DNA of 64,000 nt from Shigella phage Sf25. Position 1 is the first letter of the stretch. Every line of letters starts with the position of its first letter. Shown piece by piece: positions 835-63,757 of this stretch. The DNA is taken from the sequence record MF327009; one strand, 5' to 3'. The notes beneath the pieces are model-generated. The model had not been told where the DNA came from, ran no database searches, and worked only from the letters and a program-made list of their open reading frames with translations. Made by a program: the position numbers and the translations under genes.

Positions 835-1036
835 TTTTCACCTTTTTATTGATATGTCTTTTTCTATAGACAACTTTTTCTCGAGTTTCAAATTTATTCT
901 TAGCAGTCATAGCTCGAGCCCATAATACAGCCACTTCTTTCGCCTGTAAGTTTAATTCACGAGCAATTTCAATGAATGACTTTCCAGACTCATGAAGAGT
1001 AAACACCACAACCTCAGTTCTCATAATCAATCTCAT
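821..1036 (-). CDS. hypothetical small protein (71 aa); its 5' end and upstream leader lie inside a 202-bp tandem duplication
   Basis: ORF track; a second copy of its first ~38 codons plus leader is present at 1125-1238. Confidence 0.5.
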   Translation of the reverse strand: MRLIMRTEVVVFTLHESGKSFIEIARELNLQAKEVAVLWARAMTAKNKFETREKVVYRKRHINKKVKNGTV

Positions 1037-1326
1037 GTTATCGAGTTGGTGCCATTATATACATCATTTTCTGATTGTGTTTTGTGTGCTTTCAAAATGA
1101 AGAAAGGGGCCGAAGCCCCTTATGTAATACAGCCACTTCTTTCGCCTGTAAGTTTAATTCACGAGCAATTTCAATGAATGACTTTCCAGACTCATGAAGA
1201 GTAAACACCACAACCTCAGTTCTCATAATCAATCTCATGTTATCGAGTTGGTGCCATTATATACATCATTTTCTGATTGTGTTTTGTGTGCTTTCAAAAT
1301 GAAGAAAGGGGCCGAAGCCCCTTATG
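923..1326. repeat. exact tandem duplication, 2 x 202 bp (923-1124 and 1125-1326)
   Basis: The two units read identically, including the hairpin ggggccgaagcccc and the start codon of the 71-aa ORF. Confidence 0.9.
1090..1119 (-). terminator. rho-independent terminator hairpin (GGGGC-CGAA-GCCCC plus U-run) downstream of hoc; duplicated at 1292-1321
   Basis: GC stem with GNRA-type loop followed on the minus strand by a T-rich run. Confidence 0.55.
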
Positions 1327-1327
1327 A

Positions 1328-2395
1328 TTATGGATAGGTATAGATGATACCAGTTTCTAAAGCAGTTTTATGAATGATGTATCCATTACGTGATTCTTGA
1401 ACATCAACTTCTGGATAGTCTTTCATCATCTTCTGAAGCGTATAACGATGCAAGTAGTATTTACTATCTGGATCGTCAGTTTTCCAATCTTTACCTTCTT
1501 CGGTCATTTTTTGGATTTCATCCATAACCCACCAACCACACCAGATGTAAGCTGAAGTACGATGTGGAAGAGGATGAACATAAGGTAATTCACCTTCTGG
1601 CTCTGGAGCAACTTTATCAGTTACCTGAACTTGACCTTCCGCCGTAATAGTTTTGCTATCATAATCAGCAGCAGTAACAGTTGCAGTAACTTCAATAGTT
1701 TGACTTCCAATAGATGAGGTATCAATGGTATATACATTAGTTGACCCTTCTACAGGAGAAGAATCTTTCTTCCATGAATACGCAATTTGCGCTTCTTCTG
1801 GAGCATCAGTGACATTAGCAGTAAATGTAGCCGAAGCATCTTGTTGAACGTTAATAGAAGGAGGAGTCAATGTAACCTGTGGATTCATTGTCTTCTTATT
1901 AACTGTTAATGATACTTCATTCGAAGTAACTTCCTTTTCATTGTAATTTTCAGCAGTTACTTGGGCTACGCATTTAATTCTTTTTACTCCACTTGTAGTT
2001 GGAGTATAGCTAAATGTAGAGTTAGTTTCTCCACCAACTTGTGAATCATCTACATACCACTGATACGTAGCAGATGCGCCTGATGGCTGCGAAGCCAAAG
2101 CAGCGGTAAATTCAACAGCTGTTCCGATTACTCCTTCCGGAGGACTATTAGGAGTTACGGCTAAGGTAGTCGTCTGTGTCTTATTTTGAACTGTGATAGT
2201 TGTACTAATTTCAGCTGTTTCGGGACTACTATCGGCAACTTGATTTGTTGCAACTACTTTAATAGTCTTTTGACCGGCAGGTCCTTTTAATACATAACTA
2301 AAAGTTGCTTCAGCTCCATCTTGTGGAACATCATCTACAGTCCAAGCATATGTAATAGGTCCATCTCCAGTTTGACCACTGGGCGTAGCAGTAAA
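1328..2395 (-). CDS. hoc: Hoc (highly immunogenic outer capsid protein, Ig-like domains); 5' end missing, no ATG/GTG in the open frame upstream of TTG 2098
   Basis: Frame open from 2395 to 1328; translation ...FTATPSGQTGDGPITYAWTVDDV...ASATYQWYVDDSQ...ELPYVHPLPHR...IIYTYP matches recalled T4 Hoc from about residue 22; a TAA immediately precedes F22. Confidence 0.8.
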   Translation of the reverse strand, partial: FTATPSGQTGDGPITYAWTVDDVPQDGAEATFSYVLKGPAGQKTIKVVATNQVADSSPETAEISTTITVQNKTQTTTLAVTPNSPPEGVIGTAVEFTAALASQPSGASATYQWYVDDSQVGGETNSTFSYTPTTSGVKRIKCVAQVTAENYNEKEVTSNEVSLTVNKKTMNPQVTLTPPSINVQQDASATFTANVTDAPEEAQIAYSWKKDSSPVEGSTNVYTIDTSSIGSQTIEVTATVTAADYDSKTITAEGQVQVTDKVAPEPEGELPYVHPLPHRTSAYIWCGWWVMDEIQKMTEEGKDWKTDDPDSKYYLHRYTLQKMMKDYPEVDVQESRNGYIIHKTALETGIIYTYP

Positions 2396-20873: not shown

Positions 20874-21066
20874 TACTTATAATTTCAACATCAGCCCAAT
20901 GACCATAGCAAGGAAGACGAAATTCAACTGGCCAGTTAGGGTCCTTTTCTAATATAATAGACTGAACTTGTGGCTCTTCATATTCATCGGTATACGGACC
21001 TTTATACGTTACTTTATATGTGACCTTAATATGCTGAATTCCAAAAATCTTATTAATTATATTCAT
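20860..21066 (-). CDS. hypothetical protein (68 aa), 30.x
   Basis: ORF track. Confidence 0.4.
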   Translation of the reverse strand: MNIINKIFGIQHIKVTYKVTYKGPYTDEYEEPQVQSIILEKDPNWPVEFRLPCYGHWADVEIISIENV

Positions 21067-21260
21067 ACTAATTCCTTTAATCCGTAAATAGGAGATAATT
21101 CATCGCCCATACGAAGGTCTTCATTTCCATCTACCCAGGAAACAATATAAGCCTCTTTTATTTGAATACCACTCCATTTAAATGGAGGTAGAACCTTAGA
21201 AATTAATCCAGGTATACCAACTCCCTTTAATTCAACAGTTTGACCTAAAAAGAATTTCAT
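21063..21260 (-). CDS. hypothetical protein (65 aa), 30.x
   Basis: ORF track. Confidence 0.4.
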   Translation of the reverse strand: MKFFLGQTVELKGVGIPGLISKVLPPFKWSGIQIKEAYIVSWVDGNEDLRMGDELSPIYGLKELV

Positions 21261-21588: not shown

Positions 21589-21954
21589 TTAAATATCAAA
21601 TTCGTTAAGAACTACATCAAAGATTGCTTCAAGATGCTCAGGTTTAGCTCTGTTACTCAGAATATGACGAATCCAAGTTTTAACCAGAAGCTTGCGATTA
21701 ACGCCATTCCAGCAAGGATGAGTCCCTAAATCGCGTTGACGAAAATCATCATCCAAAGCGATTTTGAAGTTGGAACCTTCCATTGTGATTGAAACCGTGA
21801 TGCCATTTTCAAATCGCATATAAACGTAGTTAGGAGTCATATACTGTTCAATTTCGCATACTGATCCATTTTGATGTTTCCAAAGGCAAATAGTATCAAT
21901 AGAACCTGCAATACCATTAGAAACATATTTACGTTCAAAGTTGATGTAGTTCAT
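21589..21954 (-). CDS. hypothetical protein (121 aa), 30.x
   Basis: ORF track. Confidence 0.45.
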   Translation of the reverse strand: MNYINFERKYVSNGIAGSIDTICLWKHQNGSVCEIEQYMTPNYVYMRFENGITVSITMEGSNFKIALDDDFRQRDLGTHPCWNGVNRKLLVKTWIRHILSNRAKPEHLEAIFDVVLNEFDI

Positions 21955-22022
21955 TTTTATTCTCCGAGATGTTTAATTGCGGTACAGGTATATAATATCA
22001 TATCCTGTACCAAAGTAAACAA

Positions 22023-22355
22023 TTATTTTACTACTTTCCAGTGCTTCATGTCAAGTTTACCAACTTTTTTCATCTTCTCAATTAAGCGTTCGGCACGTTG
22101 GCGAGCTGTAACATAATACCATTCACCTAATTCATTTTGTTCAATTTTTCCAACGATTACTGTATTCAATTCATAAATCCAACCAGTAAAGAAATTATGA
22201 ACTTGAATTGTAAAGGTGAAATCTGTTCCCATACCTTCTGTTGTTTCTACTTCAATAATATCACCTTCAACTGCCATTAAGAACCACATAGTTTCATCAT
22301 ATTTACCATTGAAGCATTTAGTTTTAACTGCAGCGTTCAGATTAATCGTTTTCAT
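22023..22355 (-). CDS. hypothetical protein (110 aa), 30.x
   Basis: ORF track; early-promoter-like GTTTAC/TATTAT upstream at about 22385-22420. Confidence 0.45.
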   Translation of the reverse strand: MKTINLNAAVKTKCFNGKYDETMWFLMAVEGDIIEVETTEGMGTDFTFTIQVHNFFTGWIYELNTVIVGKIEQNELGEWYYVTARQRAERLIEKMKKVGKLDMKHWKVVK

Positions 22356-22442
22356 TTTATTCTCCTTTGTTTCTGTAAGATAATACTAACACAAAGGAAC
22401 CATACTGTAAACAACTTTGTGCAATCTTTGGAAAATAAAAAA

Positions 22443-22460
22443 GGACTCCCGAAGGAGTCC
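22443..22460 (-). terminator. hairpin terminator (GGACTCC-CGAA-GGAGTCC plus U-run)
   Basis: Perfect stem-loop followed on the minus strand by a T-run. Confidence 0.55.
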
Positions 22461-22465
22461 TCAAC

Positions 22466-22807
22466 TTATGCTTTCTGCTTACCAAAACGAGAAGCATCAT
22501 CTCGAAGAACCGCACGTGCTCGGCGCATGATCTTCTCAACAGTTTGATTGATACGAGAGTTCGACCCACGCTTGTAGCCAGCGCGTTTAGAATCACCAAC
22601 TTTCTTTTCAACTGCTTTCTTTGCTTTAGCTTGTTTTTTCTGCTTACCAAAACGAGAAGCATCATCTCGAAGAACCGCACGTGCTCGGCGCATGATCTTC
22701 TCAACAGTTTGATTGATACGAGAGTTCGACCCACGCTTGTAGCCAGCGCGTTTAGAATCACCAACTTTCTTTTCAACTGCTTTCTTTGCTTTAGCTTGTT
22801 TTGCCAT
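22466..22807 (-). CDS. small highly basic protein, expanded from about 58 to 113 aa by an in-frame 165-bp tandem duplication
   Basis: Translation MAKQAKAKKAVEKKVGDSKRAGYKRGSNSRINQTVEKIMRRARAVLRDDASRF with the 55-aa block repeated exactly. Confidence 0.55.
   Translation of the reverse strand: MAKQAKAKKAVEKKVGDSKRAGYKRGSNSRINQTVEKIMRRARAVLRDDASRFGKQKKQAKAKKAVEKKVGDSKRAGYKRGSNSRINQTVEKIMRRARAVLRDDASRFGKQKA
22472..22801. repeat. exact tandem duplication, 2 x 165 bp (22472-22636 and 22637-22801), in-frame
   Basis: Identical nucleotide units; boundary ambiguous by 1 bp. Confidence 0.9.
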
Positions 22808-23095
22808 TATAAATTCTCTTTTAAATGAAAATGCAGGACTTATTGGCATTGCCTGCGCAAGCCCTCAAGGGGAACATAGGTTTTTGGATATTTAACGACC
22901 AGGATAACCATAAACCCGTCATCATACCACCAAGACTTACACAGATAACACTTTTCTGACGCATGATAGTAACATTCAAGAGGTACACCGTAAAACTGCC
23001 GGGGTCTTGAAACTATAATGATTCGCAAATCATTAATCAGACAGTTCGACGGCTCCTCGATTTAGCTCACACTAAGGCAGTGAATCTCCAATAAA

Positions 23096-23344
23096 TTACT
23101 TCAATGTTACCACAAAGTGACGAACTGCTTTTCGTGCAGCAGAAGCCAGAGGCTTAGCATACTTAAGTTCATCTTTTTCCTGGAGCTCAGCAGCTAATGC
23201 AGTTTGAGCAGGATTCAGATGTTTGAAATAACGCAGGATTTCAAGAGCTTCGGCTTCAACATCAATAGATGCGCCATAGTTTTCGTGACCATTATTCCAT
23301 GCGTTTCGTTGCAGTTCAAGAGCGTGTTGTAATTGTTTAATCAT
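23096..23344 (-). CDS. rIII: rIII lysis-inhibition accessory protein
   Basis: 82-aa ORF MIKQLQHALELQRNAWNNGHENYG; length matches T4 rIII. Confidence 0.85.
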   Translation of the reverse strand: MIKQLQHALELQRNAWNNGHENYGASIDVEAEALEILRYFKHLNPAQTALAAELQEKDELKYAKPLASAARKAVRHFVVTLK

Positions 23345-23428
23345 TTAAAAATTCTCGTTAGAGATTAAAACTCGGTAGTCACGTTCTTCTGAATTTCATC
23401 TTCTTTCGACAGATCTCTCAGTTGTAGA

Positions 23429-23734
23429 CTAACAGGTAACGAATTTTTGTTTAATTTCTTTTGGCTGCTTAAGACCCAGAGCTACAAAAGGGTGTGGAAC
23501 GTTTCGAATTTGACCAACTGGAAGAGAAGTCAAATCACCAACTTCACAGAAACCTTCAGGAACATCAGGACCAACAGAGTGAACTACACACAGTTCAGGA
23601 ACTTCACCTTGAACACGTTTACCGATAATAAGTCCTGATTCTGTAACTTCTTCATCACCGGCTTGTGCAGGTTCAGAAACTAAAATAACATATTCACCGA
23701 CAGCACGAATTGGTAGCTGTTGTACTTCAGACAT
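23429..23734 (-). CDS. 31: gp31 co-chaperonin (GroES-like); ORF is 101 aa versus 111 aa recalled for T4
   Basis: [44 protein letters not shown] matches recalled gp31; ends at ...KFVTC. Confidence 0.8.
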
Positions 23735-25252: not shown

Positions 25253-25485
25253 AGTACGCCATACACCCTTTGTGCTTCAACTAATCCATCAAAATCCAGT
25301 TTAAGATGTGTTATTTGATCACCATCACCTGGATTCACAATTACTAATACTGAACGAGGAGTTTCGGTAATAACACGAACCGATGTTTCAGGAAATCGTT
25401 CAGAAACCTTATTTACCAATTCCTGAGCAAATAGTTTAACTTTTTCTTGGAATTCTTTAACAGTAATTGGTTTTTCACTTAGCAT
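25249..25485 (-). CDS. hypothetical protein (78 aa), cd.2-like
   Basis: ORF track. Confidence 0.45.
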   Translation of the reverse strand: MLSEKPITVKEFQEKVKLFAQELVNKVSERFPETSVRVITETPRSVLVIVNPGDGDQITHLKLDFDGLVEAQRVYGVL

Positions 25486-26006
25486 GTTGATCCCAGCTCC
25501 TTACTTTCAACGTTTTTAACTAATTTGACAGAAACTAATTCGGCATCTTGGGTAATCATTACCGGGCCTTCTTCATACTCTTCAAGATATTCTAGAGCTT
25601 TCTTTTTAGCTTCTTCCTTCGTATCAGTTTGAGCATAGATATAGAACATACAACCAGTAATACCTACTACTTTCCACTTAATTTCTTTATCAGTTTTAAT
25701 TTCAAATTTACTGATAGAGTCATCTTTTTGAACTTCTTCGAAAAAATAATATTCTGACATATAAGTAATTGAAAATAACGGGCTATCTTTATAAGATTCG
25801 CCCATTACATCAACAGCTTTATACCAGCAGTCATCAATTTCACGTTTAATGCTAATAACATTTTTCGCAGAATCTATTTTTACTTTAAATGAATTTTCCC
25901 CAATAAACTTGGCAATTCGTTTATTAGCCCCGCAAGTTTCATTAAAAATATCTTTATATCCAGCTTTAAAGCGATAAACCTTATCTTCTTCAAACCATTT
26001 GCTCAT
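25479..26006 (-). CDS. hypothetical protein (175 aa), cd.3-like
   Basis: ORF track. Confidence 0.45.
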   Translation of the reverse strand: MSKWFEEDKVYRFKAGYKDIFNETCGANKRIAKFIGENSFKVKIDSAKNVISIKREIDDCWYKAVDVMGESYKDSPLFSITYMSEYYFFEEVQKDDSISKFEIKTDKEIKWKVVGITGCMFYIYAQTDTKEEAKKKALEYLEEYEEGPVMITQDAELVSVKLVKNVESKELGSTC

Positions 26007-28196: not shown

Positions 28197-28639
28197 TTAT
28201 CCTCTTTTAACTCTTGACGATAATAACATATCATAGTTTTCTGATCATGTACATATCGTTTTACATCATTAAGCCAAATGCGAAATTCCTGGGAATCTTC
28301 AAATGGCATACCGACCCAAGCTTTACCATCAATAACTTTAACTTGCCAGGATAGTTTAGCTTCATCGTATGACTTTATTTGTACTGGCCAATTAGGATGA
28401 ACTGTTTCTTTCTTTACTTCTAGAGGCTTTGTCGAACAACCAACTAGAAGACCAATAGATAATATTACCCAAGCTTTACCATCAATAACTTTAACTTGCC
28501 AGGATAGTTTAGCTTCATCGTATGACTTTATTTGTACTGGCCAATTAGGATGAACTGTTTCTTTCTTTACTTCTAGAGGCTTTGTCGAACAACCAACTAG
28601 AAGACCAATAGATAATATTACTGCTGATAGTTTAATCAT
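28187..28639 (-). CDS. putative lipoprotein, expanded from about 99 to 150 aa by an in-frame 153-bp tandem duplication
   Basis: Signal/lipobox-like LSIGLLVGC-S; the 51-aa block ILSIGLLVGCSTKPLEVKK...DGKAWV is repeated exactly, giving two lipobox copies. Confidence 0.5.
   Translation of the reverse strand: MIKLSAVILSIGLLVGCSTKPLEVKKETVHPNWPVQIKSYDEAKLSWQVKVIDGKAWVILSIGLLVGCSTKPLEVKKETVHPNWPVQIKSYDEAKLSWQVKVIDGKAWVGMPFEDSQEFRIWLNDVKRYVHDQKTMICYYRQELKEDKCK
28314..28619. repeat. exact tandem duplication, 2 x 153 bp (28314-28466 and 28467-28619), in-frame
   Basis: Identical nucleotide units. Confidence 0.9.
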
Positions 28640-32383: not shown

Positions 32384-34897
32384 TCATAATTTACAGGATG
32401 AACAATCTTCAGCTTTTGGAGTTTCTATTTCATAATCATCAGTACCAGAACCGTCACGGGTATTATGATAATAGAAATTTTTTCCGCCAAAATACCAAAA
32501 ATATAAAAGGTCATCAATCATTATTGACATTGGAACCTTTCCTTTTGGAAAAATCTGCGGGTCATAATATGTATTAGCTGAAGCTGATTGACATACCCAT
32601 TTCAGCATAATAGCTACTTGCGTAAGATAAGGTTTATTGCCTTTCTTAGCTAATTTCCACGTATAATCATAGAGGTCTATGTTATGCTCAATATTGGGCA
32701 CGACTTGATTAAAGGAACCCTCTTTTGATTCTTTAACAGAGACTGGTCCACGTGGAGGCTCGATACCGTTTGTACTGTTAGAAACTTGGGAAGATGACTC
32801 ACATGGCATAAGTGCTGATAATGTGCTATTACGGATGCCAAAGAGCTTAAGGTCTTCCCGCAGCGACGACCAGTCACAAACGTATTTTGGAGCTGCGATT
32901 TGGTCAATCTTTTTATTGTACCAGTCGATAGGTAATTCGCCTCGAGACCAACGAGTGTCTGAATAATATTCGCAAGGTCCTTTTTCTTTGGCGAGCTTAA
33001 TGGATGCTTTAATGAGTCCATACTGTAATCTCTCAAATAGTTCATGTGTTAAATCGTTAGCATCTTCATAAGAAGCAAAATTACTTGCCAGCCAAGCTGC
33101 ATAGTTAGTAACACCTACACCAAGATTTCGACGCTTTTTAGCTTTTTCTGCTTCAGGAACTGGATATCCTTGGTAATCCAAAAGATTATCAAGAGCACGA
33201 ACTTGGACTTCTGCCAATTCATTAATTTTATCTTGGTCTTGCCAATCAAAGTTATCTAACACAAATGCAGATAACGTACACAATCCAATTTCAGCATCAG
33301 GACTATTCACATCATTTGTTGGAATAGCAATTTCACAGCACAAGTTGCTCTGACGAATAGGTGCCTTTTCACGAATAAACGGAGTATAGTTATTCGTATT
33401 ATCTATGAACTGTACATAAATCCTTGCTGTTCCTGAGCGTTCAGTCATGAGCAATTCAAATAGTTCACGGGCTTTAATACGCTTTTTACGAATATTAGGG
33501 TCTTTTTCTGCTGCTTCGTATAATTCACGGAAACGGTCTTGGTCTTTAAAATAAGAATAATAAAGCTCGCCACCCATTTCATGCGGACTGAACAAAGTAA
33601 TGTAATCGTTCTTTCCGAATCGTTCCATCATCAAATCATTCAGCTGAACACCATAATCCATATGACGGATACGGTTTTCTTCTACACCTTTGTTATTTTT
33701 CAAAACGAGAAGATTTTCAACTTCCAAATGCCAAATAGGATAATAAGCAGTAGCAGCGCCGCCACGAATTCCACCCTGTGAGCATGATTTAACAGCAGTC
33801 TGAAAATGTTTCCAAAAAGGAATAACACCAGTATGGCGTACTTCACCTGTGCCAATCTTAGAACCTTCGGCACGAATCATACCAACGTTAATACCAATTC
33901 CATAATCCATATGACGGATACGGTTTTCTTCTACACCTTTGTTATTTTTCAAAACGAGAAGATTTTCAACTTCCAAATGCCAAATAGGATAATAAGCAGT
34001 AGCAGCGCCGCCACGAATTCCACCCTGTGAGCATGATTTAACAGCAGTCTGAAAATGTTTCCAAAAAGGAATAACACCAGTATGGCGTACTTCACCTGTG
34101 CCAATCTTAGAACCTTCGGCACGAATCATACCAACGTTAATACCAATTCCAGCGCGTTTGGAGATATATTCAACAATTGAAGCAGAAGCCTTATTGATAG
34201 ACTTTAATGAATCACCTGCTTCAATAACAACGCATGAACTAAACTGCCGAGTTGGAGTACGGCAACCAGCCATAATAGGAGTTGGCAGTGAAATCTGTCG
34301 AGTAGATACTGCTTCATAAAAACGGATAACGTGTTTTAATCTATCAACAGGTTCATCTTGATGCAATGCCATTCCAATAGTCATAAATGCAAACTGTGGA
34401 GTTTCATAAATTTGACCAGTGGTTTTATCTTTAACTAGATATTTTTCTTTTAATTGCATCGCCCCGGAATAAGTAAATTCCATATCCCGCTCGTGCTTAA
34501 TTTTTGATTCTAAAAATGTAATTTCTTCGGCAGAATATTTTGACAACAATTCAGGGTCATATTTACCTTCATTTACACAGTAAGAAATGTGGTCAATAAA
34601 TGAACGTGGTTCATACTGCCCATAAACATGCTTACGAAGAGCGAACATTAAACAGCGTGCAGCTACATATTGATAATCAGGCTCTTCAACTGAAATAGAA
34701 TTCGCAGCAGCCTTAATTACAATGGTTTGAATGTCATCAGTTGTCATTCCATCACGGAGATATGATTTAATATTTTCATATAATTCATAAGGATCTACAG
34801 ATGTTCCTTCAGCTGCCCAAGATAAAACTTTAATAATTTTTTGCGGGTCAAAGCTCTGAGAAACACCACTACTTTTGATAACATTAATTAATTGCAT
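32384..34897 (-). CDS. nrdA: ribonucleotide reductase large subunit carrying an in-frame 249-bp tandem duplication (837 aa versus 754 aa expected)
   Basis: MQLINVIKSSGVSQSFDPQKI...; 83-aa block GIGINVGMIRAEGSKIG...NRIRHMDY repeated exactly. Confidence 0.9.
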   Translation of the reverse strand: MQLINVIKSSGVSQSFDPQKIIKVLSWAAEGTSVDPYELYENIKSYLRDGMTTDDIQTIVIKAAANSISVEEPDYQYVAARCLMFALRKHVYGQYEPRSFIDHISYCVNEGKYDPELLSKYSAEEITFLESKIKHERDMEFTYSGAMQLKEKYLVKDKTTGQIYETPQFAFMTIGMALHQDEPVDRLKHVIRFYEAVSTRQISLPTPIMAGCRTPTRQFSSCVVIEAGDSLKSINKASASIVEYISKRAGIGINVGMIRAEGSKIGTGEVRHTGVIPFWKHFQTAVKSCSQGGIRGGAATAYYPIWHLEVENLLVLKNNKGVEENRIRHMDYGIGINVGMIRAEGSKIGTGEVRHTGVIPFWKHFQTAVKSCSQGGIRGGAATAYYPIWHLEVENLLVLKNNKGVEENRIRHMDYGVQLNDLMMERFGKNDYITLFSPHEMGGELYYSYFKDQDRFRELYEAAEKDPNIRKKRIKARELFELLMTERSGTARIYVQFIDNTNNYTPFIREKAPIRQSNLCCEIAIPTNDVNSPDAEIGLCTLSAFVLDNFDWQDQDKINELAEVQVRALDNLLDYQGYPVPEAEKAKKRRNLGVGVTNYAAWLASNFASYEDANDLTHELFERLQYGLIKASIKLAKEKGPCEYYSDTRWSRGELPIDWYNKKIDQIAAPKYVCDWSSLREDLKLFGIRNSTLSALMPCESSSQVSNSTNGIEPPRGPVSVKESKEGSFNQVVPNIEHNIDLYDYTWKLAKKGNKPYLTQVAIMLKWVCQSASANTYYDPQIFPKGKVPMSIMIDDLLYFWYFGGKNFYYHNTRDGSGTDDYEIETPKAEDCSSCKL
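33651..34148. repeat. exact tandem duplication, 2 x 249 bp (33651-33899 and 33900-34148), in-frame within nrdA
   Basis: Identical nucleotide units; boundary ambiguous by 3 bp. Confidence 0.9.
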
Positions 34898-34915: not shown

Positions 34916-35271
34916 TCGTCTTTAAACAATCGGTTAACTATATGAGCTATTATATCACCATGACACGGCTTTGGTTTACATGTGCATCCTAGCCTCATTC
35001 CACGTAAAGGCTCTAAATGTGCTTTAGTTATTTCTCCGGATTTAATTCGACGTATAAAATCTTTTTTGAATAATTCAATGGCAGCCTCCCGGCTCGTCTT
35101 TAAACAATCGGTTAACTATATGAGCTATTATATCACCATGACACGGCTTTGGTTTACATGTGCATCCTAGCCTCATTCCACGTAAAGGCTCTAAATGTGC
35201 TTTAGTTATTTCTCCGGATTTAATTCGACGTATAAAATCTTTTTTGAATAATTCAATGGCAGCCTCCCGGC
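34916..35271. repeat. exact tandem duplication, 2 x 178 bp (34916-35093 and 35094-35271), just upstream of the nrdA start
   Basis: Identical units; unit length not a multiple of 3; replaces the 3' end of the upstream ORF. Confidence 0.9.
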
Positions 35272-38440: not shown

Positions 38441-38887
38441 CTACTTTTTGAAAGTTTTTCGCAAAAGTTCAATGATTTCATCTACATTGTTTTCGTCAAC
38501 AATGCAGTGAATTTTTGTTACGCCAGAAACCTTGTCTATGACTTCATCTACATTGTTTTCGTCAACAATGCAGTGAATTTTTGTTACGCCAGAAACCTTG
38601 TCTTTGACTTCATCTTCTTCAGAAGTCGGTTCTTTATACTCACGAAAACAATGAAATTCATCTTCGCAAATTTCTAAAAGTCTATCTTTGAGGTAAAAAT
38701 GCTTTCCATTTGCGCATTCAATGTGTTTTACTGCTTTATATCCATTAGCGACGGAAACTTCTTTAACTTCAAACCATCCGCCATTATCTCGAATAGCTTT
38801 AACGATTGATGAATTAGAACGTGGGCTATAATTAATAAATGTATCAATAAGTCTTGGAACAAGTTCATACTTTTTGCCAATATACAT
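38441..38887 (-). CDS. hypothetical protein (148 aa) with an internal 22-aa tandem repeat
   Basis: ORF track; ...VKDKVSGVTKIHCIVDENNVDE VIDKVSGVTKIHCIVDENNVDE.... Confidence 0.45.
   Translation of the reverse strand: MYIGKKYELVPRLIDTFINYSPRSNSSIVKAIRDNGGWFEVKEVSVANGYKAVKHIECANGKHFYLKDRLLEICEDEFHCFREYKEPTSEEDEVKDKVSGVTKIHCIVDENNVDEVIDKVSGVTKIHCIVDENNVDEIIELLRKTFKK
38472..38615. repeat. near-exact tandem repeat, 66-bp unit, about 2.2 copies, 2 mismatches
   Basis: Position i matches i+66 across 38472-38549 except at 38476 and 38538. Confidence 0.8.
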
Positions 38888-40311: not shown

Positions 40312-40809
40312 TTAATACTTGCAAGATTTCACAGTTTCAATAAAAACTTTTTTAGCTTCCTGTGAATCAATATTTAAAATTTTTCTATAAGCCTTTAACT
40401 TTATAGAATAATTATTCCAAACTAAATTATCAGTTTGTTGATCATGTTTATCAATTATATTTAAAAACGAATCAAGCAAGATAAACGTCTCAAACGAAAT
40501 TATGTTCGATTGCAGAAGTTTAAAAATATAACTTGACTGAACTTTTGGATTATACTCAAAAATTTCTTTAAAAGCAGAAACTTCAACTTTTTTACTAAAA
40601 TAATAAATGTTGCGAATATCTTCTTCAAACTTAAATTTAATTTGCTTTAAGCGTCCGATATATTCACGATAAAACACAAGTGCATCAGCGTCAGAGATGT
40701 CACCAATCCAAGCATCTTGGTTAGCAACCAAATTGCTTATAAAGATTAAAGCAAGTTCCTTTAATTTATATTTTTCTGATAACTTCTGGAAAAAATACTT
40801 ATCCCTTCG
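40312..40809 (-). CDS. 59: gp59 helicase loader, C-terminal 165 residues only (about residues 53-217), fused in-frame to gene 33
   Basis: RRDKYFFQKLSEKYKLKELALIFISNLVANQDAW...ETVKSCKY matches recalled T4 gp59; the N-terminal about 52 residues are absent. Confidence 0.75.
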   Translation of the reverse strand, partial: RRDKYFFQKLSEKYKLKELALIFISNLVANQDAWIGDISDADALVFYREYIGRLKQIKFKFEEDIRNIYYFSKKVEVSAFKEIFEYNPKVQSSYIFKLLQSNIISFETFILLDSFLNIIDKHDQQTDNLVWNNYSIKLKAYRKILNIDSQEAKKVFIETVKSCKY

Positions 40810-41127
40810 ATTAGTTTTTTCACAACGAACAACAGAAGGACGTAAAAGATTTTCGTCGATAGCTTCTGACTGAATTTTTTCAATTATACCCGAAGGAATA
40901 AATTTAGCAAATTGAGTTTCAGGAATAGAATTTTCTTCTAAGAACGCTGTTGTAGCTTCAAGATAACTCATTCCAAACTCTTCTACCATTTTTTCAATAA
41001 TAAATCCATTTTCTTGGCGGTCAAGAAGCTTTGCTATTTCATCCTTTTCTTTCTTAATTGAAAGTTCTTTTTCTGAAAGACCGGTCTCATCGACCGGACG
41101 AATATCATTTAGAGAAAACTGTGTCAT
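40810..41127 (-). CDS. 33: gp33 late-transcription co-activator, residues 1-106, lacking its last about 6 codons and stop, fused in-frame to gene 59
   Basis: MTQFSLNDIRPVDETGLSEKELSIKKEKDEIAKLLDRQENGFII...VVRCEKTN continues directly into the gp59 sequence. Confidence 0.75.
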
Positions 41128-48134: not shown

Positions 48135-51100
48135 ATGGCTACTTTAAAACAAATACAATTTAAAAGAAGCAAAACTGCAGGTCAACGTCCTGCTGCTTCA
48201 GTATTAGCCGAAGGTGAATTGGCTATAAACTTAAAAGACCGTACTCTTTTTACTAAAGATGACTCGGGAAATATTATTGATTTAAGCATTTCTGCCGGTG
48301 GTAACATTAGTGGAAATATCACTCAAAATGGTGATTATTTACAAAACGGCACGTATAATCTTAATGGAAATCAGTTTGTTTATGCAGGAAAGTATATTGA
48401 ATTCTTGCCAAAAACTGCTGGAAATGGTGCTTGGGCAAATCAGCACACAAATAAAGCTCCAATTTTCACCGATTTGAGTTCAACTACTTCAACTTCTGAA
48501 TATCATCCGCTAATTAAACAACGTTATAAAGATGGAACGTTTTCATTAGGGACTTTAGTTTCTGAAGGCTCAATGAAGATACACTATATCGATGAAACTG
48601 GCACTTCAAAATATTGGACTTTCCGACGTGATGGTGGTTTTGTTGTTGATAGTGGTAGTTTAACTGTTACTGCTGGAAACATATCTGCTTCAGGCAATAT
48701 TAATTCGGCATCAGGGGTTGTTTCAGCTCCTCAAATTAATACAAAAACCATTGTTTTAGATACAAAAGCATTTGGACAATATGATTCGCAGTCATTAGTT
48801 CAGTATGTTTATCCTGGCACTGGCGAAACAAACGGTATAAACTATCTTCGTAAAGTTCGCGCAAAATCAGGTGGTACAATTTATCATGAAATAGCTTCAG
48901 CTCAAAGTGGAAAAAGCGATGAAATTTCGTGGTGGACTGGAAATACAGCCGTTAATAAACAAATGGGTCTTCGTAATGATGGTGCAATGGTATTACGTCG
49001 TTCACTTGCTATTGGCACAATTACTACAGATGAAAACGTAAATAACTATGGATCTGCTGGAGCAATGGGAGAAAAATACATTGTTCTTGGAGATGCGTCA
49101 ACTGGACTAGCTTATAAAAAGACAGGAGTTTATGACTTAGTTGGTAGTGGTTTATCTGTTGCTTCTATCACTCCCGACAGTTTTCGTAGTACCCGTAAAG
49201 CAATTTTTGGACGTTCTGAAGACCAAGGCGGTACATGGCTTCTTCCTGGTCAAAACGCTGCTCTTCTTTCAGTTCGTACAGATATTGATCAAAATAATAA
49301 CGGTGATGGTCAAACTCATATTGGATATAATAGTAACAGCAAGTTTTATCATTATTTTAGAGGCAGAGGCCGAATGGCTGTTGGAATGGCTGAAGGTCTT
49401 ATTGTTGAGCCTGGAATTTTAGATATTAAAACTGGTTCAAATACTGTTTCTATTAGAGCTGATGGCGGAATTTCATCTACTCAGCGTCTTTCATTGCAGA
49501 ATGGTATATTTTTATCTTCTGACGGAAATAACAACGGTATATCGTTTAAAGCTTCTAGCAGTATAGATGGAACTAAAACTCTTAATTGGGATGCTGGTAC
49601 TCGTGCAGGTCAAAACAAAAATACAGTAATTTTAAAAGCATGGGGAAATTCATTTAATACAAGTGGTGGAACTGATAGACATACTGTATTTGAAGTTTCT
49701 GATTCGCAAGGATACTACTTTTATGCTCAACGTACTACCCCTGCATCCGGTCAAACAGTAGGTCCTATTAATTTTAAATTTAATGGTACTGTAGAAACCG
49801 GTCATATCAATGGATTAGGTAATATTACTTTATCTGGGGCAGTTATAGCAGATTCTGCTAATATTAAAGGACCGCTAAAAATATCTAATGCTAATACAGC
49901 TGATGCTTTTAGAATATGGAACGCTGAATATGGAGCCATTTTCCGTCGTTCAGAAACATCATTGCATATTATTCCTACACTTAAAGATGCAGGGGAAAAT
50001 GGTGGAATAAGTAATCTTCGCCCATTAAGTATTGATCTTTCAAACGGATTTGTGCAAATGCATCATTCTCTTTCTGTGGGGAATACAGTAAGAACGAATG
50101 GATTGTTTGCTGTGGATACTTCAGCTGCTCTTGTTGCAATTAACAGATGTTCCTATTGTGAAACAAAGATACGTTCAAGGGAATAGCACCTATTCATTAG
50201 GTACTTTAATTAATGGTGGTGATTTCCGTTTACATTACCATGAAGGCGGTGACAGTTCTTCAACAGGTGCAGTTATAAAAGATATTTCCTGGGAATTTAA
50301 ACGTAATGGTGATTTCTATTCGCCAGGTCGTTTACGTACAGGAAATATCTATATTGGAACTGATGGTAATATCACGGGTGGTTCTGGTAACTTTGCTAAC
50401 TTGAATACAACTTTAAACCGTAAAGTTAATTCTGGTTTTATTACTTATGGAGCAACTGCAGGTTGGTACAAGTTTGCAACAGTAACAATGCCTCAAGCTA
50501 CATCAACCGTTTCAATTACAGTCACTGGCGGAAATGGATTTAATTCTGGATCATTTAATCAGTGTGCAATTTCTGAAATTGTTCTTCGTACAGGAAACAA
50601 TAATCCTCTGGTGATACATATGACATTTATGTTAATATGGGAACATATGCTAATCAGTTGATATTTAACTATAGTTCTGTTGATAATGCCACAGTTCAAA
50701 TTATTGGCGCATTCAGTTCAGCTCAAAATCCTGTTGATGCATTGCCAGAAACATATGTTAAAGGTCAGGTAGCAGATGTATTGACTAACTTAGTTGATTC
50801 TGGAAAAACGAAGCGTTTTGTTGCTGAATCTGAAATAGCTATTAATAATCAAACTGGATTACGTATTACGAGTAATGGTGATAAATCTGGTTCAAATTCA
50901 GTATTATTCAGAAATGATGGATCAGCGTTTTATATTCTTTTAACAGATAAAAACGCAGCAGATGGAAATACGACTGCCACAGAAGGAGATTGGAATGGTA
51001 AACGTCCTTTCCAAATTAATATGACTTCTGGTGAAGTAACATTCGGAAATAATATTAATATTTCTGGAAACGGAAGCATTACTTGGACAAAAGCCGGAGC

Positions 51101-51770
51101 AAACCCTAGAAATATGAGAATATTTCATGCAGGTGATGCTTCTCGTGGTAACCGTATTGAAATCGCAGATGATACTAATTATATTGCTTACTTTGAAAAA
51201 ACTCCAGGTGGAGCTAACCGCTTTGTAGTTAATGGTGCTACTGTAGCTGGTGTTAATCAAATGAATTCATTTGGTATTAACATCAATAACGCGCTTGGTG
51301 GAAATAGTATAGCATTTGGTGATAATGACACGGGTATTAAGCAAAACGGCGATGGATTATTAGACATTTATGCGAATGGTGTGCAAACGTTCCGTTTCCA
51401 AAACGGTGATTTGTACTCATATAAAAATATAAATGCCCCAAACGTTTATATTCGTTCTGATATTCGCTTAAAATCTAATTTCAAACCTATCGAAAATGCA
51501 CTTGATAAAGTTGAAAAACTCAATGGTGTCATTTATGATAAAGCTGAATATATCGGTGGAGAGGCAATTGAAACTGAAGCGGGTATTGTGGCTCAAACGT
51601 TACAAGACGTTTTACCAGAAGCCGTCCGTGAAACAGAAGACAGCAAGGGTAATAAAATACTCACTGTTTCTTCTCAAGCCCAGATTGCTCTTCTGGTTGA
51701 AGCTGTGAAAACGCTTTCTTCTCGTGTAAAAGAACTTGAATCTAAACTTCTTGAATCTAAACTTATGTAA
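48135..51770 (+). CDS. 37: long tail fibre distal subunit gp37, T2-type with C-terminal intramolecular chaperone domain; reading frame broken twice (about 50140-50160 and 50604-50615)
   Basis: Three consecutive ORFs in three frames (48135-50186, 50098-50661, 50637-51770), all gp37-like: [37 protein letters not shown]...; [34 protein letters not shown]; C-terminal SDIRLKSNF...VKELESKL. Confidence 0.8.
51456..51767 (+). other. peptidase S74-type intramolecular chaperone / self-cleavage domain at the gp37 C-terminus
   Basis: Motif RSDIRLK followed by a coiled-coil-like tail; domain assignment by recollection of the family. Confidence 0.55.
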
Positions 51771-51800: not shown

Positions 51801-52498
51801 ATGGCAATTGTAGGTGTTCCTGGCTGGATTGGTGAATCTGCCGTGAATGAAACAGGACAGCGTTGGATGGATGCTGCAATGAGAGCAGTCCGTGTTTCAG
51901 TTCCCGGTTGGATGAGCTCAATGGCCGGACAATCTAAAGAAGTATATTATAGCATTGGTGCTAGTAATTCTTATAATAAAGATACATTAATAAACTGAAT
52001 GCATACGTGACACTTAATATCAATTCAGGCGTGCATGTTTGGGGCCGTGGCGGGAATGGCGGAAATAACTCTGCCGGTGGAGCAGGAGGAACTGCAATAA
52101 ATAATGGAATTGGAACTAGATTGCGTATTAACAACAATGGTGTTATCGCAGGAGGCGGTGGCGGCGGTGGAGGCGGATATTATTCTCCTTTTTCACAAAT
52201 GAAATTGACTTTTGGCGGTGGCGGCGGTCGTCCATTTGGTGCTGCTGGCGGGTCTGCTAATATGGAACAGGGCGCTACTGCTGGTACTATTTCTGCACCT
52301 GGTAAAGGGTCTGTCAATGGTATCTATAATGGCGGGAATGGCGGTGATGCTGGTGCCGCAGGTGGTAAATGTAATATTCGTGGGCAAGGATCAGAATATA
52401 ACGGCGGTGCGGCCGGTAAAGCTGTTACTGGTAATGCTCCAACTTGGACTAAGGTTGGTACAATATATGGCCCTCTGATATTCTATTTGGTGTTCTAG
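51801..52498 (+). CDS. 38: gp38 receptor-recognising adhesin (T2-type, glycine-rich islands); split by a frameshift near 51980-51996
   Basis: ORF 51801-51998 (MAIVGVPGWIGESAVNETGQRWM...) and ORF 52007-52498 in another frame with GGGGGGGGG islands; the second frame is open back to 51980. Confidence 0.75.
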
Positions 52499-57620: not shown

Positions 57621-57680
57621 CTAAAGCTTGAAATTATTACGATAGAACTGCATCACATGTTCGTTATGGAAATTACTCAT
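57621..57680 (-). CDS. stp: Stp-like peptide (19 aa; T4 Stp is 26 aa)
   Basis: Manual translation [19 protein letters not shown]; first 16 residues match recalled T4 Stp. Confidence 0.4.
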   Translation of the reverse strand: MSNFHNEHVMQFYRNNFKL

Positions 57681-58529: not shown

Positions 58530-58718
58530 TTATTTTACACCATTCCAAATTGTTTCAACTACAGATTTTAAGCCATTTTGATGAATGTCCATTCCGACTA
58601 CCGCCATCAAATAGATTCCAACTACGTTTAACATATCAATCATTAAAACGATTGGGAATATACTCAAAACTACTAGTATTATAACTACATTCCATATAGC
58701 TTTAATAATCTTTTTCAT
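58530..58718 (-). CDS. small membrane protein (about 62 aa from MKKIIKAIWNVVIIL)
   Basis: ORF track 58530-58853, trimmed to the internal Met preceded by GGAGG and an early promoter at 58746-58776. Confidence 0.4.
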   Translation of the reverse strand: MKKIIKAIWNVVIILVVLSIFPIVLMIDMLNVVGIYLMAVVGMDIHQNGLKSVVETIWNGVK

Positions 58719-61330: not shown

Positions 61331-63757
61331 TTAGGCCGCAAGGGCCTTCATAGTTTTAGCGATTTGAGAAACTTCATCATCACTTAAAGAGTTGCGATAA
61401 CCGATGAAGTCGGAAACAATACGGAATTTCTTGGTAAACTCAGCAACCATTTTATCACTGTTTTTTGAAGCATTATTTGATAATACATCAAAAAGATTAG
61501 TTACTGTCCAGATGTCATGACCGATGGTACCTTTTCCACCGTTGAAATATACGCCCCGCAATGAACTAACTATATTAGCGAGTCGTGTATATTCTTCAGA
61601 AACTTCATCTGTACTGAAGTACTTCATCATAAAATCTAGTTCAGGATACTTGATAATTTTATCAATATATCGTTGAGCTGAACTTGAATAACCTACGTAC
61701 TTATCATAATCTACATCATCAAAAGCATCTACATATAAATCACGCAGAGTTTCAAAAATACATTGGCACTGACCGAGTTCTTTTACCTTTTTCTGCAAAA
61801 GCGGACGAATAACATAAAATTCATTAATGCCAATAAGATTAGCCATACGAATCAAAATATTCATAGATGGATGACAAAGAGATGTAGTACCATCCATAGA
61901 GAAAATATCAGAACGATGCATATACGCTACATAACCAGTAATTTCATCTGCTTCTGATGTGAGCGTAAACAGTTCCTCTTTTTCCCATCGCCCATCTTTA
62001 ATTTCAAACTTAAATGCTGTAGCAGCTTTAGGACGAGGAGCTTTACTTTTAACTACCTTTGGAATATAGCTTTTAACTAAAGCTTCAATTTCTGACAAAT
62101 AATGAATGTTAACTTCATCACTTTCAAACATCGCCATAATATCAGGAAGTAAATCAATCTGCGATTCTACTTCTGGATTAATAAACAGAAGACGCTCATT
62201 GTGATGAATATTCAAAGTGTTATTAAATTCACTATCATCTAACGCATGTGCTAATCCACGAACAATATTAACACGATTTTTAATATTATCAATAACGATA
62301 TTAATTTTTGTTGTATTAATACCAAACAGACGATAACTTGATGCAACGGCTGAAGTTTCATGACTTTGCTTAATGCGTTTCAGTCGAGGGTCAAGATTTA
62401 CTTCATACACAACTCCTGCATTGCATAACTTACTGTCAGGTTCAAACATGCTCTGCATCTTTTTATATGACAGATTTTTAGTCGTGAATTTGACTGAATT
62501 ACTAATCATATAATCTCGAGCAGAATATCCCATCTTCATCAATTCACGATATGTGTGACGAGGAGATGTAGATTCTTTAAATCGTTTTACATCTTCATTG
62601 AATGCCTTCTCACTAAGCTCTTTAACACGCTCAATAATATTTTTACGAGTACGATCATCTAGTGAAAGAGCTTCGCGTGATGGAGCAATATCAAGTGAAC
62701 CCATTGGAAACTTAATGTAATTCACTTCATTGCGAATGCTTAGCCAGTTACGGTCTCTAATAACACCATCGATAGGATAAACAATACCGCCATAGATAGC
62801 ATATAATCCACCACGATCAGGCCAGTATCTTTCTGGATTTACACCATAATAATCATCAAAATCAGGAAAATAATCAATTTCAATAATATTTTTACGAGTA
62901 CGATCATCTAGTGAAAGAGCTTCGCGTGATGGAGCAATATCAAGTGAACCCATTGGAAACTTAATGTAATTCACTTCATTGCGAATGCTTAGCCAGTTAC
63001 GGTCTCTAATAACACCATCGATAGGATAAACAATACCGCCATAGATAGCATATAATCCACCACGATCAGGCCAGTATCTTTCTGGATTTACACCATAATA
63101 ATCATCAAAATCAGGAAAATAATCAATTTCGCGGTCAAGACCATTAATGATAGCCAAATCTTTGAACGGTCGCATGATATAAGAAACTTCATAAGCAAAG
63201 TTTCTAAAGTCTTTTTCTTCAACTGGAACTACGATTTCAATACCAGTTTTATCATCTGGACCCATTTCTTTTACGAATGTAGGTTTAATCTGTGGGCCAT
63301 CACCATCCATGTAAGCTACATAACCACGAATTTCACCTTTATGATACGAAGTAATACTAAACGTATCAGTATAACTAAACGGAGATTTAGAACCTAAACC
63401 AAATCCGCCAATAAAGTCATTAGATTCAGCCTTAGATGAACTGAAGTATGAATTATACAGCCCAGGAGAATTATCATCACCCTGAATATCAAAATCACTC
63501 ATACCCGGACCAAAATCTCGACAAACAAATCGTGGATCTAATCGTCCTGGAACTTGAATGATAAATTTTTCAGGATTTCCATTAAGTGCATGAGCATCAA
63601 TCATGTTAGTAATCAATTCACGGACTACTGCGCGAATCTTGTTTGTATACAAATCAGATGACAGAATTTTAAATACTTTAGGATTTGCTGCGATGCTAAA
63701 TGCTTTTGATTTAGAACCATTGCCAAGAATTGTTTCTTTTTCAGTGGTGATAATCAT
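61331..63757 (-). CDS. rIIA: rIIA protein carrying an in-frame 249-bp tandem duplication (808 aa versus 725 aa expected)
   Basis: [20 protein letters not shown]...; 83-aa block [24 protein letters not shown]...TRKNIIE repeated exactly. Confidence 0.9.
62631..63128. repeat. exact tandem duplication, 2 x 249 bp (62631-62879 and 62880-63128), in-frame within rIIA
   Basis: Identical nucleotide units. Confidence 0.9.

Follow-up and report, generated by a model that had tools for sequence, protein, structure and literature searches.

Probable sequence-construction artefact behind an exact 165-bp in-frame doubling of the gene 30.9 homologue in a Tequatrovirus

The stretch of DNA analysed here (64,000 nucleotides, referred to as the window) belongs to a new Tequatrovirus. 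It shares approximately 97-98% identity with phages SholemSchwarzbard, KRT47, and Sf24, and the best phage record reaches 96.8-98.1% over long stretches. The locus under study shows a T4-type gene order (30 ... 30.7, 30.8, the doubled 30.9 gene, rIII, 31, 31.1, 31.2, cd), in which the homologue of T4 gene 30.9 has 30.8 and rIII on either side, shares their strand, and is followed by a terminator; this position is conserved among members of the protein family phrog_1427 (T4 gp30.9). The doubled open reading frame (ORF) begins at the conserved start codon (ATG at 22807) and ends at a stop codon at 22466-22468. It is followed by a strong terminator hairpin, beyond which lies an early-type promoter for 30.8; the start codon, the stop codon, and the terminator are all intact despite the duplication. 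An alternative upstream ATG at 22849 would give a doubled product of 127 aa. The homologues of gp30.9 share the common start MAKQAKAK while differing in their upstream extensions, and the true product is therefore taken to be 58 aa long. The coordinates of these features, and of the other rearrangements described below, are listed in Table 1.

Within this gene, an exact array with a period of 165 nt occupies positions 22472-22802 (2 x 165 + 1 nt by exact extension) and lies entirely within one minus-strand ORF. TRF described the array with a period of 165, 2.0 copies, 100% matches, 0 indels, and a score of 662. A preliminary description of the window had placed two identical units at 22472-22636 and 22637-22801, coordinates that proved to be exactly right. 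Its reading of the duplication as in frame, giving a protein with two exact 55-residue basic modules, was likewise borne out, residues 3-57 being the same as residues 58-112. At the junction between the units (22636|22637) the homology amounts to 1 nt. An adjacent exact repeat of 165 nt cannot have originated by chance, and the same repeat scan, applied as a control to 62 kb of the nearest relative, detected no exact tandem duplications. What the preliminary description had overlooked is that the 165-bp array does not stand alone, as TRF identified six perfect two-copy duplications in the window, this one included.

The single module matches the phrog_1427 profile from end to end (residues 1-58, E=2.3e-31), and the doubled protein matches it in two stretches (E=1.2e-59). 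Homologues are 84-100% identical over the aligned stretch, usually one whole module, and have in common with the window the site between 30.8 and rIII, the downstream terminator, and the start MAKQAKAK. However, every known member of the family is single-module, whereas the window encodes two exact modules. The protein is very basic, with a pI of 11.4 and 33% K+R, and the AF2 single-sequence model of gp30.9 is all helical, with a pTM of 0.33 that is too low for any statement on the fold. Searches with the gp30.9 protein gave no Pfam family above the cut-off and no match among PDB sequences at E<=10, and the Rfam scan of the window gave no match. No function for phrog_1427 was found in PHROGs, Pfam, PDB, Rfam, or the literature, in which 'gp30.9' occurs in one paper. 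The module had previously been proposed to bind nucleic acids, a role suggested by its composition alone, as no DNA- or RNA-binding domain or fold was recognisable in Pfam or PDB. Several public records of gp30.9 homologues (PV390659.2, LR597657.1, and the UniRef entry of Klebsiella phage PMBT63) label the 58-68-aa protein as a '1,4-alpha-glucan (glycogen) branching enzyme', which is evidently an automatic mis-annotation.

Table 1. Positions of the doubled 30.9 gene, its parts, and the other private rearrangements in the window, with the microhomology at each junction
Feature	Position	Strand	Junction microhomology (nt)	Remarks
Intrinsic terminator hairpin	22441..22462	-		directly after the 30.9 stop; left intact by the duplication; same terminator annotated in phage ASO78A
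Doubled T4 gene 30.9 homologue	22466..22807	-		113 aa vs 58 aa in all relatives
165-bp unit 1	22472..22636	-	1	encodes residues 58-112 of the doubled protein; identical to unit 2
165-bp unit 2	22637..22801	-		encodes residues 3-57; identical to unit 1
2 x 202 bp exact duplication	923..1326		0	5' part of a small ORF and intergenic region next to hoc; single copy in SholemSchwarzbard
2 x 153 bp exact duplication	28314..28619	-	2	in frame, pseT.2 spanin gene, 150 aa vs 99 (+51 aa); single in 8 relatives
2 x 249 bp exact duplication	33651..34148	-	3	in frame, nrdA, 837 aa vs 754 (+83 aa); single in 8 relatives
2 x 178 bp exact duplication	34916..35271	-	1	nrdA.1 homologue, last codons frame-shifted; single in 8 relatives
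2 x 249 bp exact duplication	62631..63128	-	2	in frame, rIIA, 808 aa (+83 aa); single in Sf24
133-nt deletion	junction 2394..2395		1	hoc start and inh stop lost; vs SholemSchwarzbard only
93-nt deletion	junction 23431..23432		0	essential gene 31 shortened by its final 10 codons; gp31 101 aa vs 111; identical boundaries in two relatives
173-nt deletion	junction 40809..40810		0	gp33 without its C-terminal clamp-binding tail fused to gp59 without ~52 N-terminal residues
173-nt deletion	junction 50146..50147		0	frameshift in tail-fibre gene 37
70-nt deletion	junction 50606..50607		1	second gene 37 frameshift
103-nt deletion	junction 51997..51998		0	adhesin gene 38 split
72-nt deletion	junction 52469..52470		1	gp38 stop lost; start and ~20 codons of holin t lost
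130-nt deletion	junction 58624..58625		1	ndd.2a / ndd.4 region; identical boundaries in two relatives

The comparison with the single-copy gene of related phages, which the preliminary description had proposed, showed 30.9 to be single-copy in all relatives compared. For instance, gp205 of KRT47 is encoded by a single-copy gene of 177 nt annotated as 'similar to T4 gp30.9', and in relatives 30.9 is called at a length of 58 or 72 aa, so that the 113-aa product of the window departs from the single-module size of about 58 aa. When 1,401 nt around 30.9 were used as a query, 440 phage records covered at least 80% of it, and every top match aligned in two pieces that together covered 1,235-1,238 nt. 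With a 60-nt query that had the duplication junction at its centre, none of 50,697 phage records gave a contiguous match, although the two halves of the junction query had 100% matches in hundreds of them. The exact junction 40-mer was likewise not found in IMG/VR, JGI metagenomes, or GTDB genomes. Identical proteins were also sought for the doubled product (127 and 113 aa), gp34, and Alt, with no match; a gene-37 50-mer was missing from IMG/VR, another 50-mer with SNPs private to the window had no match in IMG/VR, JGI metagenomes, or GTDB genomes, and complete E. coli genomes and plasmids gave no match either. At the protein level, the doubled gp30.9 was compared with 5.8 billion proteins, among which no two-copy homologue was found; the 34 homologue clusters retrieved all covered at most 50% of the query, and the longer database entries of gp30.9 were upstream start-codon extensions only.

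The doubling of 30.9 is accompanied by other changes of the same kind. The comparison set comprised the three closest genomes (SholemSchwarzbard, KRT47, and Sf24) plus another 12 independent loci taken from GenBank, ENA metagenomes, and Logan. A total of 14 rearrangements were private to the window, consisting of six duplications (153-249 bp) and eight deletions (70-173 nt), all of them absent from each of the 15 comparison genomes or contigs covering the respective site. Across the six arrays, 1,196 bases are duplicated with zero divergence between copies. The deletions are clean, with no inserted bases, and their boundaries are the same or within about 2 nt where two relatives cover the site. 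The two deletions in gene 37 together distribute this gene over three reading frames, and the gene-31 deletion junction (23431|23432) was absent from all phage records. The clamp-binding tail of gp33, lost in the fusion with gp59, has been described as 'absolutely essential' (PMC2988020). Judging from the established roles of the genes that were hit, the genome as written cannot give rise to an infectious, lysing phage. The earlier suggestion that the duplication doubles the valency of the module is undermined by the five look-alike duplications and by the eight private deletions inactivating essential genes.

Different patterns were observed for the point differences and for the rearrangements. 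Mismatches to the relatives fall mainly at codon position 3 (484/596), and the codon changes comprise 470 synonymous and 86 non-synonymous ones; the point differences have therefore been filtered by selection and look natural. The same third-position and synonymous bias rules out synthesis or random mutation of the entire sequence as the source of the point substitutions, though not of the rearrangements. As for the rearrangements, the lengths of six of the 14 events are divisible by three (p=0.31), which, together with the breaking of essential genes, indicates that no selection filter acted on them. Taken alone, the six duplications all lie in non-essential genes or regions (~p=0.06) and four keep the reading frame (~p=0.10), so that on their own they would be compatible with a viable phage. 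However, selective filtering of the duplications is ruled out by the eight deletions that break essential genes and by the random combined frame statistics. With the rearrangements unfiltered and the substitutions strongly filtered, it follows that the rearrangements post-date all selection.

Taking these observations together, we infer that the 165-bp doubling is very probably a sequence-construction artefact, made with the record, because it is one of 14 private rearrangements of which several destroy essential genes. The true gene is an ordinary single-copy 58-aa gp30.9 homologue. A single process would have scattered six perfect duplications and eight clean deletions over a Tequatrovirus genome that is otherwise normal and has diverged naturally. 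Our guess at the most likely mechanism is that ordered contigs were joined end to end: an overlap left unmerged would produce an exact tandem duplication as long as the overlap itself, and closing a gap without filler would produce a clean deletion. Other post-assembly or in-silico editing would have the same appearance. In keeping with an artefact, the copies are 100% identical, the breakpoints are arbitrary and without homology, and the record combines several like events with gap-like deletions, regardless of reading frame and essentiality. The window resembles assembly and scaffolding artefacts in its perfect copies, similar-sized events, clean deletions, broken ORFs, and absence of the events from every relative, but it differs in that no strain switch occurs at the 165-bp junction. 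A weak further hint is that the size maxima are tied in both classes of events (249 and 249 bp for the duplications, 173 and 173 nt for the deletions), which suggests a hard technical or algorithmic cap in the generating process.

The relatedness profile of the window, based on 16 comparison sequences, changes more strongly across the junctions than it does at controls (p=0.0014, a value confounded by the hypervariable tail-fibre region), and with matched controls outside this region the shift gave p=0.035. These shifts agree weakly with chimeric joins. At the 165-bp junction itself no relatedness shift was observed, the segment 21785-23185 being uniformly identical to SholemSchwarzbard. It was also noted that 21785-23431 shows a single mismatch to this phage (at 23186) in the roughly 1.65 kb leading to the gene-31 deletion junction, and that from 23432 on about one mismatch occurs per 40-50 nt, so that the switch in relatedness coincides with a rearrangement junction.

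The main alternative is a genuine and very recent in-frame duplication of 30.9 in a viable wild Tequatrovirus, encoding a 113-aa two-module protein, with the lethal deletions being unrelated assembly errors, which appears very unlikely. This explanation would account for the location of the doubling, in frame and inside a non-essential small gene whose start, stop, and terminator are preserved, and for the fact that all six duplications spare essential genes; moreover, T4 readily forms tandem amplifications (PMC9391042). However, natural T4 amplifications and deletions typically show a microhomology of 6-10 bp, with a range of 2-10 bp (PMC9391042), and a natural tandem duplication retains one copy of the short repeat at its junction, as opposed to 1 nt of homology at the 165-bp junction. 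Random breakpoints in this genome have a mean microhomology of 0.75 nt, with P(>=6 nt)=0.003, an expectation matched by the 0-3 nt at the duplications and the 0-1 nt at the deletions. Exact 165-bp direct repeats should also be unstable under the active homologous recombination of T4, which counts against a genuine duplication. The 30.9 array has, furthermore, the same anatomy as the five other private duplications, two of which have lengths that are not multiples of three, and would nevertheless have to be an event of another kind. Neither the hundreds of close relatives nor any of the large collections contain it. The co-occurrence of six duplications whose copies show no divergence across 1,196 duplicated bases would, moreover, call for an unknown burst mechanism. 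No independent isolate with the duplication, as would be expected of a natural one, was found across the 50,697 phage records, IMG/VR, JGI metagenomes, GTDB, and the 15 loci. Deletions in viable T4 affect non-essential genes only (PMC9391042), and a natural duplication would be expected in a viable genome, whereas genes 33/59, 37, 38, t, and 31 are hit by private deletions in the window. If this explanation were true, the product would be the first two-module member of the gp30.9 family, and the duplication would be unusual for a T4-type phage in being independent of homology.

The natural amplifications of T4 (for example dmd-tifA, described by Srikant et al. 2022, together with the rII and gene 16-18 duplications that this paper cites) resemble the arrays of the window as head-to-tail direct repeats in a T4-type genome. 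They usually comprise whole genes under selection, with non-essential deletions alongside (PMC9391042), in contrast to the 153-249-bp fragments, 0-3 nt of homology, and hit essential genes of the window. In the frd.2 homologue (38472-38615), the window also contains an in-frame duplication of 66 bp, absent from the relatives examined, which has one mismatch between its copies, an imperfect 12-nt flanking direct repeat, and a hybrid junction, and which looks like a natural slippage event and serves as an internal positive control. This duplication is window-specific, in-frame, and tandem like the 165-bp one, but unlike it carries the flanking 12-nt repeat and the hybrid junction that are hallmarks of a natural event.

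A real but defective molecule is a further candidate, and a very unlikely one. It could be a rearranged genome that is not viable, or a chimera formed during amplification (whole-genome amplification, for example) and captured in one long read or in a consensus of low coverage. Such a molecule would explain how rearrangements blind to essentiality stand alongside natural-looking SNPs, as well as their uniqueness to this record. Nevertheless, 14 events within 64 kb on one molecule would be extreme, and the tied size maxima noted above (249, 249; 173, 173) suggest an algorithmic cap instead. Chimeras of displacement amplification are predominantly inverted, and no inversions were present in the window relative to three relatives, which disfavours amplification chimeras. 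It is highly improbable, finally, that a wild Tequatrovirus recently doubled gp30.9 by a homology-independent in-frame duplication as one of a burst; if true, the result would be a two-module basic helical protein and a hint of an unrecognised duplication-prone state of replication or repair in T4-like phages.

With the doubling read as an artefact of sequence construction, its biological weight is small, the underlying gene being the ordinary T4-type one, and its main value is as a quality flag, with at least 14 construction errors in a 64-kb stretch. The same artefact should be assumed for any finding in this window that rests on perfect tandem repeats, on proteins of unusual length or fused proteins, or on split genes. 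This applies to the 837-aa NrdA, the 808-aa RIIA, the 150-aa spanin, and the gp33-gp59 fusion, and likewise to the split genes 37, 38, t, 31, and hoc/inh.

Other differences from the relatives were observed in the window. In hoc (1328-2400), one 288-bp Ig-like repeat is apparently missing compared with SholemSchwarzbard (net -288 in a repeat region), besides the 133-nt deletion at its start. An exact 15-bp tandem duplication at 51735-51764 (CTTGAATCTAAACTT), with 3 nt of microhomology and absent from three relatives, repeats LESKL at the C-terminus of gp37. Two segments are replaced relative to the closest relatives, 20904-21254 in the 30.4/30.5 region (349 vs 169 nt) and 57630-57677 near ac/stp (46 vs 346 nt); the boundaries are not clean in either case, and both therefore probably reflect natural mosaicism. 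Between the cd.2-like and cd.3 genes, the minus strand carries a 175-aa ORF (25479-26006) with no Pfam match, which is absent from SholemSchwarzbard; an identical protein is encoded in many T4-like genomes and metagenome contigs, and KRT47 gp213 is a same-sized ORF at the corresponding position. This ORF appears to be an optional accessory gene.
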